A stretch of DNA of 64,000 nucleotides from Trueperaceae bacterium (GTDB lineage Bacteria > Deinococcota > Deinococci > Deinococcales > Trueperaceae). The stretch spans positions 288,001 to 352,000 of the forward strand of contig OZ243927.1 of assembly GCA_965213925.1 (NCBI GenBank), given 5' to 3'. The translations under genes and the position numbers were made by a program. This document shows, piece after piece, positions 1,171-27,365 of this stretch. The notes beneath the pieces were generated by a model. It worked only from the letters and a program-made list of their open reading frames with translations. It searched no databases and had not been told where the DNA came from. How positions within the stretch are numbered: the first letter of the stretch is position 1; each line of letters opens with the position of its first letter.

Positions 1171-1459
1171 AAGACCTCCTCAAAGCTATCAGGTCTAGTT
1201 ACGTGTGCTCTTTTGGTATCTTATCTATTTGCGCCCACCGCTCGCCCGGTATGAAACGCTTCCATCATACTCCTGGCTGACCGTTGAATAAGCTCGGTCG
1301 TTTGGCGAGCGGTGCCCGAGGTTTTGTATGGCAGCTCGCGCGACTAATGCACGAACCGATTTCGCCCAAACCGCAGCCCTGGCGATATGAGCACCTATTA
1401 GGGCCGCTCCGCACGCTTCCCCCACCTTCTGAGGGCACCGTTTCCGCTTGCCTCTGACT

Positions 1460-1570
1460 GTTCGGTTTGGCTCCAGCAAGCCGTTTGAACGCCCCCAGCT
1501 TTAACTTCTTGACCTCACCCCACCTCACGCCCCACTGTGAGATGCGCGGGCTAATCTTGCAAAAGGTATA
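1460..1570 (-). mobile_element. Left-end remnant of an IS5-family (ISL2/IS702-like) element
   Basis: Minus strand begins TATACCTTTTGCAAG (IR-like), followed by the N-terminus MRWGEVKKLKLGAFKRLAGAKP, similar to IS702-type transposase starts; similarity is lost after about 22 codons. Confidence 0.45.
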
Positions 1571-1696
1571 ATGTACTAAAAACGTTCATAGACACGTGGT
1601 GTTTTGCAAAGTCCTCCGCGCGTAATCACCGTGTAGCGCAAAACCGTCATGGAACCGCTGCACCTGAAGTACTTTCGGGAGGAGTACACTCGAAGC

Positions 1697-2422
1697 GTGC
1701 GCGTGGCAATCATTGCTGACATCCAAGGAAACGCTGTAGCTCTGGAGCAGGTACTCCTTCATATGCGCCGGCTAGACATCGATGAAGTCGTGTGTTTGGG
1801 CGACGTCGCCTCCGGTCCCGAGCCGGGCGCGGTGCTCGAGCTTCTCCGTCTACACAGATGCCACACGGTGCTTGGGAACATGGACGCGGTTATCCTCGAG
1901 CCAAGGTCTTACACAGACCTTGGCGAAGCGGAACACAAGTACGCCGAGATGGACGTTTGGTGCCACGCGCAGCTCTCGGAAGTGGATAAAGCCTTTATGC
2001 ACTCGTTCGAACCGACCGTTTCGGTCGAGCTGGGCGGTGAAGTAACACTTCTCTGCTGTCACGGCTCGCCGCTCTCTTTTGACGACGTCATCGAGGTAAC
2101 GACGTCGGAAGACGAGCTGGCGCAGTACTTCCAGGGCATTGCGGCGCAGCTCCTGGCGACCGGGCATATGCACAATCCCATGCTGCGGCGTTACCGTGAC
2201 GCAACGCTATTCAACCCTGGCAGCGTGGGCTTTCCCAATCTGCGGGTCGCAGGCGAGAAGCGGCCTCTGGTAGCCTCTTACGTGGTCGTTCAGCGAGAGC
2301 GAGGCACGGTAGATGTCGCGTTCTACAGCGTTCCTTACGCTCCTGAGGTGTTCGCGGCGCAGGTCTTGCGAAGCGGCGTGCCCCATGTTGCCTGGTTCTT
2401 GAGCGAGTGGAGTCTTGAGTAG
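1697..2422 (+). CDS. Metallophosphoesterase (YfcE/calcineurin-like)
   Basis: Motifs ADIQGN, LGD, GNMD, CHGS, GHMH, NPGSVG; GTG at 1697 preferred over 1649. Confidence 0.85.
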   Translation: MRVAIIADIQGNAVALEQVLLHMRRLDIDEVVCLGDVASGPEPGAVLELLRLHRCHTVLGNMDAVILEPRSYTDLGEAEHKYAEMDVWCHAQLSEVDKAFMHSFEPTVSVELGGEVTLLCCHGSPLSFDDVIEVTTSEDELAQYFQGIAAQLLATGHMHNPMLRRYRDATLFNPGSVGFPNLRVAGEKRPLVASYVVVQRERGTVDVAFYSVPYAPEVFAAQVLRSGVPHVAWFLSEWSLE

Positions 2423-2734
2423 AACACCTCCTTCTATGCAAGCAAGACTTAGCGAAACGACAATTATTGGTTCGTCCGGTAAATCATGTGCAGGTTCCGA
2501 AATCGAGTTTTCGCGTTGCGAACGCAAGCCAACGGACCAATAAACGGTAGCGAACTTGCCGGAACCAAGTATGTCAAGAGCAAGGCCCTAGGGAAGGAAC
2601 TGAACCGATTGGAACGCTGTGAACTGGCGAGCTGTCAATTGGCGGGTTCGCAATCTGAGAGGGCGAATCTTCAGGGCTACTACGAGCTTATCGCGGTAGC
2701 TTCGTGATTGGCTTGAGCCGTGTGCGGTGAAAGT

Positions 2735-5170
2735 GTGCGCCGTGGTGCGCATTGAGTGAATTGCCAACGGAGTTGGCCGGGGTTCAGGGCAAACGACCCC
2801 GAGGCGGATGCCTAACCTGAGCTCGAAAGGAGGGAGGGGACAAGAGCATGGCATTAAAGCGGAGCGCAAAGGAAGACGTGTACGATGCGGCTCTGCAACG
2901 CCTGAATGATAAGGCTAAGACTGGATTGTTTGAACGCCAATAGCCAGCGGTGGTCACGCACACCCGTCGGTAGCACGTCTGTACACCGACGCCATCAGGA
3001 CATTTGGATTCAAGTTTCGTCCAAATGACGCTCTGCTTGATGGGCGATGAACAATGAGTTCATCCAAGGCTATGAGTGGCGAGCCTAAGTCGTTCTAGCA
3101 CGTTCCTCAGTGACGAAACACGGGATTGCCTAAGGGACGCGAGTCCTAAGGTAACGGAGGTCTCGTAGTAGTCGTGGGCGTCACGCCCCACCAGGGAGAG
3201 CGGGAGAGCCGTTCGCAGGGCGAAGGAGACCAGGTAATCATGATGGAAAGGAACTGTGAGGTACGCGAGATGCGAACCGCCGAAACGGTACTCACCATCC
3301 TACGTGAACGCGGCCAGCGTGGCCTGCCGGTTAAAAGGGTGTATCGCCTACTCTACCGGCCTGACCTCTACCTGCGCGCCTACGCCAAGCTCTACAAGAA
3401 CGAAGGCGCACTGACACCAGGTGCCTCGGACGAAACCGTGGACGGGATGTCCCTAGCGAAAATTGATACCATCATCGAGGCGCTACGCCAAGAGCGGTAT
3501 CGGTGGACGCCGGTACGACGCCGTTACATTCCCAAAAAGAATGGCAAGATGCGGCCTCTAGGGATGCCTTCCTGGTCGGACAAACTTCTTCAAGAAGTTA
3601 TCCGCTCCATCCTGGAAGCCTATTATGAACCGCGGTTCAGCGACCGTTCTCACGGCTTTCGACCGAAACGGGGATGCCACACAGCTTTGCGCAAAGTCAC
3701 CCAAGAGGGTCGAGGTACAAAGTGGTTTATCGAGGGAGATATCTGCTCGTGTTTCGACAAGATTAACTTCGATGTCTTGTTGAACATCTTGCAGAAGAGC
3801 TTCCACGACAACCGCTTCCTGCGGCTTATCAAGGGGCTGCTCGAAGCTGGCTACCTGGAGAACTGGACCTTTCACCAGACCTACAGCGGTGTGCCGCAAG
3901 GGTCGATTGTCGGTCCAATCCTCACCAACCTGGTTCTGGACAGGCTGGACAAGTTTGTCGAGCACGAACTGATACCAGCTTACACACGCGGCGAACGCCG
4001 CAAGACCTACCCCCCGTATGTCGCCATCGCCAAAGCCGCTCACGACGCTCGGAAAGCAGGGAACTGGGAGACCGCGCGGCAACTGAGCCAGCAGGCCCAG
4101 ACAATGCCGTCGCGCGACCCCGATGACCCGAACTTCCGGCGATTGTGGTACCAAAGGTATGCCGATGACTTTCTGCTGGGGCTGAAAGGGCCAAAAGACG
4201 AGGCCGTGGCTATCAAGCAAGAGATTGCCGCCTTCTTACGCGACGAACTCAAGCTTGAGCTTAGCGAGGATAAGACCCTGCTGACCCACGCGCGCACGCA
4301 GAAAGCGCGTTTCCTGGGCTATGAGGTCCACATTCTTCACGCTGACGATAAACACGACCACCGGGGACAACGCTGCATCAACGGCAGCGTCGGACTCCGG
4401 GTACCGTCGCACGTCATGAAAGCGCACTGCGCCAAGTACATGCGACGCGGCAAGCCCATTCACCTCCCACAAAGGCTCAGCAGCGATGCTTACAGCATCG
4501 TCAGCCAATATCAAGCGGAATACCGCGGGGTCGTGCAGTATTACCGCATGGCCTACAACCTCCACACGCTGGGCCGACTCAAGCGCGTCACAGAACTCTC
4601 GCTAGTGAAAACGCTGGCGAATAAGTTCAGGACGAGTTGCCAGAAAATCTATCGGCGCTACCGCACCACCATCGACCTCAAGGAGGGCAGCTATAAAGTC
4701 CTTCAAGTCAAAGTGGACCGTGGTCCTAAAAAGAAGCCACTCATCACCCACTTTGGCGGCATCCCGTTACGGTGGAACAAATGGGTAGCCTTGGACGACA
4801 ACCAGAACAGTAAGATTTGGAACGGGCGTAATGAAGTGGTGGACCGCCTTTTAGCGCAAAGCTGTGAGCTTTGTGGGTCGGTGGAGCACGTCGAAGTGCA
4901 TCACGTCCGAAAACTGGCAGACCTTGAACAAAGAGGGCGTAAGTCACGGCCCGAATGGATGCAAAGGATGTCGGCTCGCCGACGCAAGACGCTGGTGGTC
5001 TGCCTCACCTGCCACCAAGACATCCATAAAGGGCACTACCACGGGAAAGGACTTTCATGTTGAGATTACTGGAGAGCCCCGTGACACGGAAAGCGGTCAT
5101 GCGGGGTTCGGAGGGGGGATGTTGGAAAAGCGCTATCTTTGATAGGCAGCTCGCTGGCATCCTACCCTAC
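2735..5170 (+). mobile_element. Group IIA intron (Ll.LtrB-like, ML class), apparently intact
   Basis: 5' GTGCG at 2735; DV GAGCCCCGTGAC...GCGGGGTTC at 5074-5109; DVI ending CCTACCCTAC at 5170 with branch A at -7; encodes an RT/maturase. Confidence 0.92.
3270..5063 (+). CDS. ltrA: Group II intron reverse transcriptase/maturase with C-terminal HNH endonuclease
   Basis: RPLGMP, SHGFRP, WFIEGDI, GVPQG, RYADDF, domain X, and CELC..EVHH...CLTCH; ATG 3270 follows GAGGT. Confidence 0.95.
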   Translation: MRTAETVLTILRERGQRGLPVKRVYRLLYRPDLYLRAYAKLYKNEGALTPGASDETVDGMSLAKIDTIIEALRQERYRWTPVRRRYIPKKNGKMRPLGMPSWSDKLLQEVIRSILEAYYEPRFSDRSHGFRPKRGCHTALRKVTQEGRGTKWFIEGDICSCFDKINFDVLLNILQKSFHDNRFLRLIKGLLEAGYLENWTFHQTYSGVPQGSIVGPILTNLVLDRLDKFVEHELIPAYTRGERRKTYPPYVAIAKAAHDARKAGNWETARQLSQQAQTMPSRDPDDPNFRRLWYQRYADDFLLGLKGPKDEAVAIKQEIAAFLRDELKLELSEDKTLLTHARTQKARFLGYEVHILHADDKHDHRGQRCINGSVGLRVPSHVMKAHCAKYMRRGKPIHLPQRLSSDAYSIVSQYQAEYRGVVQYYRMAYNLHTLGRLKRVTELSLVKTLANKFRTSCQKIYRRYRTTIDLKEGSYKVLQVKVDRGPKKKPLITHFGGIPLRWNKWVALDDNQNSKIWNGRNEVVDRLLAQSCELCGSVEHVEVHHVRKLADLEQRGRKSRPEWMQRMSARRRKTLVVCLTCHQDIHKGHYHGKGLSC

Positions 5171-5289
5171 CGCACGCACGGCTCTTAGGGGGCGGGAGAC
5201 CGTCACCGGTCTCCCGCTACCCGACCTTGCGCACAGCCACCCCGTGCGGCGACACGGTAACTTCTATTGCCAATAGGTAAGCTCGTGGT

Positions 5290-6252
5290 GTGAGTAGACA
5301 GAAAGTCAGCCCCGTCCAAACCCTTGTCGCCTCCTTGCTGCGCGGCGCACTCAAGCTCGGCTTTGGTCCGCAGGCGCTTAGCTTAATGAGTCGCTCGATG
5401 AGCGCGCCTAAGCTCAAGCGGCGAGCCTTCGCCGACTATACACCGAACGAACACGACGTGGTCGTCTGCACCTACGCCAAGAGCGGCACCAACTGGATGC
5501 TCCAGATCGTCACGCAAGTCGCGCACCTAGGCGGGGGCGAATTCGAACACATCCACGACCTGGTTCCTTGGCCCGACCCGCCGATGCCAGGCCTCGTAGA
5601 CCTTAAAGAGCCCACTTGGGATAGCGCCCCGACGAAGCTTCGGGCCGTCAAGACGCACTGGGAAGCGCCCTTTGTCCCCTACAACCCGGATGCCCGTTAC
5701 ATCATTGTCGTCCGCGATCCTAAAGACGTGCTCGTATCGAGCTACCACTTCGCTGACAGCATCTTCTCGGGCGTGCGCGAGCACGTATCACCTGAGACTT
5801 GGACGCACCTATTCGCAAGAGGTCGGTCGCCCTTCGGTTCGTGGGCAGCGCACACAGCCAGCTTCTGGCCCTGGCGGGAGCGAACGAACGCACTTTTTGT
5901 CCGCTTCGAGGAGATGAAAGCCGACCTTGAGGGGACGGTGCGGCGTGTTGCCGAGTTCATGGATGTTCCTCTCACGGAAGTACAACTTGGGGAGGTCGTT
6001 CGCAAGAGCAGCTTCAACTACATGAAAGCCATCGACCACAAGTTCGCGCCGCCTTCGGCCGCACCAGGGCGCGAACAGGCCGTCATGTTGCGCAGCGGCG
6101 AGACGGGGCAGGCGAAAGCGTTCCTGAGCGCGGCGCAGCGGCGGGAGGTAGACCGGGCGATGGCGCGAGAAGTCGAGCTACTCGGCTCGGACTTCCCCTT
6201 TGAGCAGTTCTATGGGCGGCAACTTGAGCCGAAACAGGTGGGCGTCACTTAG
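5290..6252 (+). CDS. Sulfotransferase domain protein (Sulfotransfer_1)
   Basis: PAPS-binding TYAKSGTNW, KTH, RDPKDVLVS, FEEMK. Confidence 0.85.
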   Translation: MSRQKVSPVQTLVASLLRGALKLGFGPQALSLMSRSMSAPKLKRRAFADYTPNEHDVVVCTYAKSGTNWMLQIVTQVAHLGGGEFEHIHDLVPWPDPPMPGLVDLKEPTWDSAPTKLRAVKTHWEAPFVPYNPDARYIIVVRDPKDVLVSSYHFADSIFSGVREHVSPETWTHLFARGRSPFGSWAAHTASFWPWRERTNALFVRFEEMKADLEGTVRRVAEFMDVPLTEVQLGEVVRKSSFNYMKAIDHKFAPPSAAPGREQAVMLRSGETGQAKAFLSAAQRREVDRAMAREVELLGSDFPFEQFYGRQLEPKQVGVT

Positions 6253-26850: not shown

Positions 26851-27132
26851 AGTTGCCCCTTGGGCGCTCCTAAGAAGATGCAAGCAAACTAGGAGCACGG
26901 TGAAGTCGGCGTCTACTATACCCCGCGAAGCTTAGGGAAACTTAGAAGGTCTTTAGAACCGAGAACTTAGCTGACGTAAGCACCTTAGGCGTTTCGGAGC
27001 GCGAGAAAAGTGCCTGCAGGCTTGACGCCGCCCCGCTAAACACGCAACAATGGTCTAGTTGAGTTTTGAATGGAGCGTTTCTTAACGCGACTCAGCGCCT
27101 CGAGCCCCCTCTCTTAGCGAGCGTAGGTTCGA

Positions 27133-27257
27133 CTCATCCAGAGCAACCGAGGGACCTGACCCGACGACGTTGCAGCAACCCGCTTTCATCCAAGCGGGTG
27201 CTCCTTTCAGACCGGCGGGGCGAGGTCACGATGGCTTCACCCTTCTGGACAGATGAG
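27133..27257 (+). ncRNA. SAM-I (S-box) riboswitch
   Basis: P1 CTCATC...GATGAG, ATCCAGAG, GAGGGA..GACCC, GCAACC...GGTGC core; directly upstream of metF-metH. Confidence 0.9.
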
Positions 27258-27365
27258 AAGGCTCTTTTTCTGACCCTTCTTTATAAACTGGCTGCATTTT
27301 CATTAAGGAGGGTTTGCTATGGCATTTATTTCTATCCCTATGGACACAACTAAAGAGGTGCGTCT

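Follow-up and report, generated by a model that had tools for sequence, protein, structure and literature searches.

Domain V (DV) forms the catalytic centre of group II introns and corresponds to the U6 stem-loop of the spliceosome. The group II intron Ll.LtrB of Lactococcus lactis, which encodes the protein LtrA, homes into a relaxase gene. Copertino and Hallick reportedly described in 1991 a twintron (one intron nested inside another) in psbF of Euglena gracilis, with the internal intron located in DV; this internal intron is said to be organellar, to lack an open reading frame (ORF), to be degenerate and to occupy a single site. To our knowledge, no retrohoming lineage with an exon-binding site (EBS) complementary to the DV loop has been described in connection with it. 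In prokaryotes, the class-B-like introns B.th.I3, M.a.I5, UA.I3 and P.l.I2 insert in the RYADD-coding motif of the reverse transcriptase (RT) ORFs of other introns (Tourasse & Kolsto 2008, PMC2504315), and nests of introns have been described in Methanosarcina (Zimmerly & Semper 2015, PMC4424553). In Thermosynechococcus elongatus, ORF-less F3 introns lie inside F1 introns, between the first two ATGs of the ORF for the host's intron-encoded protein (IEP) in domain IV (DIV) (Mohr et al. 2010, PMC2882425). Sequential splicing was shown for the Trichodesmium twintron Tr.e.I7, with its inner intron in domain I (DI), and insertion at a site essential for host splicing is said in the same source to favour retention of the inner intron (Pfreundt & Hess 2015, PMC4649490). 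Here, we analyzed a window of 64,000 nt from a Trueperaceae bacterium (assembly GCA_965213925.1, contig OZ243927.1, positions 288,001 to 352,000 of the forward strand), in which a group II intron of 2436 nt (2735-5170 of the window, + strand) interrupts the DV of another group II intron. We consider it likely that this inner intron is an apparently intact, mobile LtrA-like element of a lineage that homes to the DV-coding DNA of other group II introns. All features given below without a locus label are numbered from the first base of the window and lie on the + strand unless stated otherwise.

The inner intron begins with GTGCG (2735-2739) and ends with AC (5169-5170; last bases CCTACCCTAC at 5170), matching the terminal consensus of group II introns, 5' GUGYG and 3' AY, quoted in PMC4028801. 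Position 2735 is the query base at which BLASTN alignments to 22 related introns begin. The 3' boundary is fixed independently by the end of a match to the Rfam model Intron_gpII (RF00029; 5072-5170, full model 1-77, 46.0 bits against a gathering score of 40, E = 7.3e-6), which covers the inner DV (5074-5109) and domain VI (DVI) and ends in CTAC. The boundaries named in the original prediction, 2735 and 5170, therefore hold. In silico deletion of 2735-5170 joins the 5' flank (2715-2734, GAGCCGTGTGCGGTGAAAGT) to the 3' flank (5171-5184, CGCACGCACGGCTC) and recreates a 34-nt DV in the canonical frame, in which 14 of 14 pairs are standard and which RNAfold folds into a single hairpin with a minimum free energy of -21.1 kcal/mol. 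In the rebuilt domain, a lower helix of 9 bp carries AGC at positions 2-4, the upper helix comprises 5 bp, the loop is GAAA and the 2-nt bulge is AC; every feature of the textbook DV that had been predicted from the letters alone (AGC triad, GAAA tetraloop and 2-nt bulge) is present in the joined flanks. The 20-nt 5' part consists of the 5' strand of the lower helix with AGC, the 5' strand of the upper helix, the GAAA loop and two further nucleotides, and it doubles as the 5' exon of the inner intron, with the intron-binding sites IBS2 at 2720-2726 and IBS1 at 2729-2734. The 14-nt 3' part holds three nucleotides of the upper helix, the AC bulge and the 3' strand of the lower helix, which pairs 9/9 with 2715-2723.

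As had also been claimed, the DVI of the outer intron follows (5187-5225). In the RNAfold structure of the joined flanks, it forms a hairpin of 15 bp in which an A bulges out at 5219, seven bases before the end, and whose presumed 3' end is GAC at 5225; it is similar to the host DVI in three related loci introduced below (L023, L025 and L030). In addition to RNAfold and pair counts in a fixed frame, the junction was assessed with a chance control, in which a deletion of 2436 nt was slid over every position of both strands. Among the 123,060 joins obtained, 14/14 pairs occurred once, at the real site, whereas 13/14 occurred in 3 joins and 12/14 in 30. The precise nesting of one intron within the DV of another, with flanks that join into a recognizable part of an outer intron (a DV with 14/14 pairs and then a DVI), is thus confirmed.

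The inner intron encodes an IEP (3240-5063) with YADD and HNH motifs, and its frame is fully open over 597-607 codons, with ATG codons at 3240 and 3270; the IEPs of relatives align with it from about 3261-3270 on. The Pfam domains RVT_1 (E = 3.8e-34), Intron_maturas2 (E = 9.8e-11) and AI2M-like_HNH (E = 8e-14) were all found above their cut-offs. Against the PDB, residues 21-587 align with LtrA (5g2x_C, E = 8.8e-116), and the runner-up is far behind (E = 5.3e-35). By these similarities, the protein is a predicted member of the mitochondrial-like (ML) class, and its Intron_maturas2 and AI2M-like_HNH domains are unlike the GIIM and HNH domains of the host IEPs discussed below. At the DNA level, the first 505 nt of the intron are 74-79% identical to cyanobacterial relatives of 2412-2470 nt, and this 5' region is 67-79% identical across relatives in BLASTN. 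Because the ORF is open, all of the Pfam domains are present and the alignment with LtrA runs from end to end, the inner element seems to be an intact ML-class intron, and it is apparently mobile.

A search of genome contigs with the window IEP yielded 55 loci (labelled L with a number) with IEP identities of 61-77%. Most of them are from Cyanobacteriota, and the rest are from Rickettsiales and other Pseudomonadota, Pirellulaceae, Chloroflexota, Bacteroidota and Thermodesulfobacteriota. The intron ends of these relatives were placed by BLASTN to the ends of the window intron. In an Rfam scan of 18 loci, an inner DV/DVI match ended at the assigned coordinate in 14, no such match was found in L003, L005 and L013, and L012 runs off its contig. 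No junction was obtained from 12 of the 55 loci (L013, L024, L034, L041, L043, L047 and L050-L055). Among the 43 loci with at least one recovered junction, 36 have it in the DV of another intron, invariably at two bases 3' of the loop and oriented like the host. The original prediction spoke of an intron parasitizing introns at their active site and advised tabulating the flanks of close IEP homologs; this tabulation, with the same DV position in many unrelated hosts, bears the idea out.

Both junctions with enough flanking sequence were available for 24 loci, and removal of the inner intron rebuilt a DV-like hairpin in 20 of them. The lower helix of the rebuilt domain has at least 8 of 9 pairs together with AGC in 16 loci and 7/9 pairs in L020 and L025, while L031 and L032, whose triad is displaced by one base, reach 13/14 in the fixed frame. 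The 34-nt register does not suit hosts with a longer upper helix (L001-L004 and L006), which were scored by the AGC-anchored count of the lower helix instead. L008 and L018 have a DV half on either side of the intron, at junctions 3466/5893 and 3494/5917, and these halves are mismatched (6/9 and 5/9, respectively), which may result from recombination between identical inner copies residing in different host introns. The upstream flank of L008 equals that of L009 and L010. Both junctions of L027 and L035 are outside DV. Seven loci retain the 5' junction only, which is DV-like in four (L005, L033, L042 and L048), not in DV in two (L028 and L044) and uninformative in L012. Twelve retain the 3' junction only, with the 3' half of a DV and a DVI-like hairpin in ten (L016, L017, L022, L026, L030, L036, L037, L040, L046 and L049) and an ambiguous sequence in two (L029 and L045); the true 5' start of L026 is off the contig, and its 3' junction alone was used.

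Six more distant, plasmid-borne relatives (51-64% identity) extend this picture. L057 from Microvirga rebuilds a DV with 9/9 pairs, and L058 from Salmonella and L061 from Streptomyces have the 3' half of a DV downstream, while L056 is located elsewhere than DV (site 2495). L059 and L060, from plasmids of Calothrix and Nostoc with IEP identities of 51-55%, lie inside the RT ORF of another intron and represent another type of intron-in-intron homing, found in the sister group of the DV lineage. Their site is a conserved coding position between ...LDIEKC and FDRI... (junctions near 2502-2504 and 4906-4907), and more intact DVs are present nearby.

The organization of several other loci is also of note. 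Sites outside DV are at about 3475 in L044, at the end of an AbiEii ORF; at about 3476 in L035, beside an rve integrase ORF; at 2207 in L027; and at 3494 in L028. In L010 (5894-5930), the 3' half of the host DV (TTCACGCTACGTTT) is followed by GTGCGG... without the host DVI, and a further intron may be inserted between host DV and DVI. Extra intact DV/DVI units 5' of the twintron in L004 (91-190 and 1165-1241) and L006 (21-120) represent multi-intron arrays, and in L014 (3705-3826) a 16S rRNA gene starts about 300 nt 3' of the twintron. L061 is a mosaic of at least three introns: a different intron contributes an intact DV/DVI (2925-3000), which together with a GIIM ORF occupies the expected place of the 5' ribozyme of the LtrA-like intron (2270-3000), after whose 3' end the DV 3' half follows.

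Target recognition by base pairing was addressed in an alignment of the 5' 520 nt of the relatives. A hairpin loop, the predicted EBS1, has the family consensus ACTTTC, which is the perfect complement of GAAAGT, i.e., the DV tetraloop and the two bases that follow. About 50 nt 5' of EBS1, a second variable stretch, the predicted EBS2, is complementary to positions -13 to -8 of the 5' exon, which make up the 5' strand in the upper stem of DV. In the window, the predicted EBS1 is the hairpin loop AGTTTC (3013-3018), which pairs 5/6 with IBS1 GAAAGT (2729-2734), and the predicted EBS2 is CGCACAC (2957-2963), which forms 7 bp with positions -15 to -9 of the 5' exon (2720-2726, GTGTGCG). With regard to the IIA features of delta-delta' pairing and absence of EBS3, EBS1 is preceded by an A and position +1 is occupied by a C, and these two do not pair. 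The predicted EBS1 and EBS2 thus appear complementary to the 5' exon in the manner that is expected of a group II intron. Over 25 distinct rows, with L005 and L020 (alignment gaps) and L035 (unaligned 5' region) set aside, EBS1 pairs at 5.16 of 6 positions with its own flank and at 4.51 with the flanks of other loci; the corresponding values for EBS2 are 4.44 and 3.53, and in either case none of 5000 permutations was as high. Members with other targets have changed in step, as seen in the EBS1/flank pairs CGCGTT/AATGCG (L027), GGCTTT/GAAGCT (L028), AGTCTC/GAGATT (L044) and CGTCTC/GAGACG (L031/L032), and EBS1 fits the new flank 6/6 in L027, L028 and L044. Covariation with the own flank and matching changes in re-targeted members are what retrohoming by base pairing predicts.

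The outer intron in the window is a dead remnant consisting of a 25-codon RT stub, the split DV and DVI. The stub (2604-2696, TDWNAVNWRAVNWRVRNLRGRIFRAT...) matches the first 25 positions of the RVT_N domain (E = 4.4e-5), and its score of 24.2 bits is below the cut-off of 28.1 because the match covers no more than profile positions 1-25 of 83. In-frame stops lie just 5' of it, and a stop codon follows at 2697-2699. It aligns with the N-termini of the host IEPs of L023, L025, L011, L018, L038, L039 and L003, with W3, W8, L18, R21 and A25 invariant, and tblastn of host IEPs against it gave weak matches (E = 0.1-0.44). In several other hosts (L001, 3048-3458; L005; L031/L032; L033; L048), the sequence 5' of the split DV has no Pfam match and no recognizable IEP, as in the window. 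No RT body of the outer intron was found in the 64-kb window by tblastn with four host IEPs, which recovered the 25-codon remnant only, and DI-DIV of the outer intron were not detected by Rfam in the whole window at the gathering threshold or in 1200-5600 at E values up to 5. BLASTN of 2400-2734 and 5171-5300 against all loci gave a match limited to 25 nt at DV, in L023 and L025. The space is also confined, with 292 nt between the stop codon (2422) of an upstream metallophosphoesterase ORF (1649-2422; Metallophos_2, E = 8.1e-19) and the start of DV at 2715, and with a sulfotransferase gene downstream from 5290.

In one respect, the original prediction is not supported at this locus. It made function of the host ribozyme conditional on prior splicing of the inner intron, and the window lacks DI-DIV and an RT body of the host and offers 292 nt upstream. 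As the outer element is a remnant, restoration of DV by splicing cannot activate a host here; and as the host has decayed, the inner intron sits in a harmless intergenic site where nothing depends on its splicing. An outer intron complete from DI to DVI is found in L023 and L025, where a group-II-D1D4-7 match lies 5' of a host IEP of 517 and 504 aa, respectively, together with a split DV and a DVI; complete twintrons therefore exist, and dependence of the host on splicing of the guest is plausible only in relatives of this kind. Dead intron fragments seem to be commonly used as landing sites.

Several points weigh against the interpretation of the inner intron as a functional, DV-homing element. 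Splicing and mobility of the window copy, as well as sequential splicing in complete twintrons, are predictions from sequence. The EBS assignment was made by alignment and covariation rather than from a full secondary-structure model, and no Rfam group-II-D1D4 model matched the inner intron in the two scans mentioned above (whole window, and 1200-5600 at relaxed E values), the models being assumed not to cover its class. A G.G mismatch at position -2 interrupts the pairing of the window EBS1 with its own IBS1, EBS2 pairs 5/6 when read in the hexamer frame, and pairing is at only 3-4 of 6 positions in several relatives. The permutation statistic ignores kinship among the rows. Conservation of the flanks does not reveal which bases the IEP reads, since DV is conserved in its own right. 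With regard to the loci, a motif, not an end-to-end alignment, defined the 5' ends of L023, L028, L035, L042 and L044 and the 3' ends of L045 and L046, loci with one flank were classified by eye, and many loci come from metagenome bins, in which identical repeats can be mis-joined.

Some of these points also bear on the most serious rival explanation, according to which the lineage does home to DV while the window copy is an inactive fossil decaying in place. The mismatch of EBS1 with its own flank is what such a copy might show; BLASTN detected no further copy of either intron elsewhere in the 64-kb window; and the decay of the host suggests that the insertion may be old. On the other hand, the IEP frame is open over its 597-607 codons, with three Pfam domains and end-to-end alignment with LtrA, and the 5' GTGCG, DV and DVI of the inner intron are intact. 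We regard inactivity of this copy as possible, albeit clearly less probable than an intact and mobile inner intron.

The comparison of hosts and guests bears on a second rival, a single ancient twintron that spread as a composite, with host and guest inherited or mobilized together and the shared position reflecting descent. The identity of the insertion position in all DV cases would fit this explanation, as would the closely related sets that share host type and inner type (L023/L025 and L003/L038/L039). However, full-length host IEPs (504-611 aa) found directly 5' of the guest in nine loci, with RT or maturase fragments in eight more, form five groups, between which identity is only 27-38%. 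Their architectures also differ: RVT_N, RVT_1, GIIM and HNH; the same without HNH; and, in L021, an LtrA-like combination of Intron_maturas2 and AI2M-like_HNH. The guest IEPs, in contrast, are 63-80% identical to one another in the seven of these nine loci for which they were compared. In one Chamaesiphon assembly, four inner copies (L007-L010) that are 100% identical occur in four different contexts, with flanks (600 nt upstream and 300 nt downstream) of 48-68% identity, and the pairs L002/L003 and L031/L032 behave in the same way, with the same inner intron in differing flanks. Furthermore, given the role of DV, a host with a split DV would be unable to splice or move while it carries the guest. 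This comparison of host with guest gives a first indication of incongruence, and we consider joint descent improbable.

Even less probable is a one-off accident, in which an ordinary mobile intron without any specialization for DV landed in a leftover copy of the domain. Ectopic insertions of group II introns are known, the EBS1/IBS1 pairing in the window is imperfect, and the host is a dead fragment, all of which would be compatible with such an event. This explanation appears to be already contradicted by the comparative data, namely the shared DV position in 36 of 43 related loci and the exact complementarity of the family EBS1 consensus to the DV loop and two bases, and the single DV-like join among 123,060 in the control also speaks against it. 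The least credible alternative, that the locus is not nested but is one intron with additional DV/DVI-like sequence at its 3' side (e.g., an alternative 3' splice unit or an extension as in C.te.I1 and B.c.I4), could draw on the DVI-like hairpin with a bulged A after the intron (5187-5225) and on the existence of introns with repeated DV/DVI or 3' extensions, as noted by Zimmerly & Semper (2015, PMC4424553), but downstream there is just half a DV, whose partner strand lies 5' of the 5' splice site and pairs 9/9, the remnant of a different RT (of the RVT_N type, which is absent from the inner IEP) is just upstream, and relatives have a whole second IEP at the corresponding place.

We propose the following homing pathway for the DV-targeting lineage. 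The ribonucleoprotein of the excised intron would recognize the sense strand of DV-coding DNA, with EBS2 bound to the DV stem on its 5' strand (about -15/-13 to -8) and EBS1 pairing with the GNRA loop and the next two bases (-6 to -1), while the IEP presumably reads conserved flanking bases of DV. Reverse splicing of the intron RNA would then take place two bases 3' of the loop, with the bottom strand nicked by the HNH domain and the intron copied by the RT. The outcome would be a twintron in which the host DV is split into 20 and 14 nt. We infer reverse splicing, nicking by HNH and reverse transcription by analogy with Ll.LtrB.

A phylogenetic tree of IEPs with 37 rows contains a clade with 100/97 support that comprises 34 of them, of which 30 are labelled as DV insertions, three are non-DV members nested inside and one has no known site; some of the labels rest on one flank. 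The sister group consists of the two plasmid introns that home to RT ORFs and the host of L021. Because the non-DV members nest inside the DV clade, DV homing looks ancestral to the clade, with few re-targeting events. Members of the clade and its more distant relatives are distributed among Cyanobacteriota, Pseudomonadota (including Rickettsiales), Planctomycetota, Chloroflexota, Bacteroidota and Thermodesulfobacteriota, as well as plasmids of Salmonella, Microvirga and Streptomyces. A broader proposal, for and against which we see the chances as even, is that this widespread LtrA-like clade consists of hyperparasites that home to DV DNA. DV is the one sequence common to every intron class, and the clade could therefore invade any class; it would persist in dead fragments and hold the host ribozyme hostage, with DV homing as the ancestral state and a few members re-targeted through EBS1 and EBS2.

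If so, DV-coding DNA would be a landing site that is available wherever group II introns live, present in multiple copies, often located on plasmids or other mobile DNA, and harmless to the cell. Such homing would add a parasite-on-parasite layer to the population biology of introns, in which a guest can silence its host intron, relies on the spread of the host to reach new sites and can provoke recombination among hosts, of which the mismatched DV halves of L008 and L018 may be an instance. Outer introns with a split DV are missed by automated censuses. Two published pipelines are stated to discard twintrons or to overlook the outer intron (PMC4028801 and PMC8919778), and this loss would help the DV-homing pattern to stay unnoticed. 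In addition, the lineage would provide a natural example in which loop pairing directs an intron to a target that encodes a hairpin, which may be of use in targetron design.

Two other features of the window are unrelated to the twintron or outside it. A SAM (S-adenosylmethionine) riboswitch (RF00162, 54.7 bits, E = 7.3e-10) at 27131-27259 on the + strand is unrelated to the twintron, and a 195-aa ORF at 583-1170 on the - strand has no Pfam match at E values of 0.001 or below.

Our full-text literature search returned no report of a bacterial intron lineage that homes to DV, an earlier mention being possible. Lineage-wide DV homing thus appears not to have been described before, and the locus in the window is itself a twintron remnant. 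One of the closest known systems is Ll.LtrB, with which the window intron shares a length of about 2.4 kb, an IEP encoded in DIV that aligns over the full length of LtrA with RVT_1, Intron_maturas2 and AI2M-like_HNH in common, and EBS2 and EBS1 loops located within 300 nt of the 5' end; retrohoming by base pairing combined with nicking by HNH is presumably common to both. The targets differ, since the window lineage homes to the DV of other introns. The Tr.e.I7 twintron (PMC4649490) represents one locus and not a pattern across a lineage. The introns of T. elongatus resemble the DV lineage in their cyanobacterial setting and in the presence of identical inner copies in diverged outer introns, which were taken as recent independent insertions; however, the core of the host ribozyme is untouched in T. 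elongatus, and the guests are ORF-less IIB1 relatives of their host (PMC2882425). In concept, the closest analogs are the class-B-like introns, which likewise home to the most conserved sequence of other introns, form twintrons and renew their own target site. According to PMC2504315, they target the active site of a protein (YADD) encoded in DIV and do so without an endonuclease domain, whereas the DV lineage, with an HNH-containing IEP of another class, targets the RNA hairpin at the catalytic centre of the intron itself.

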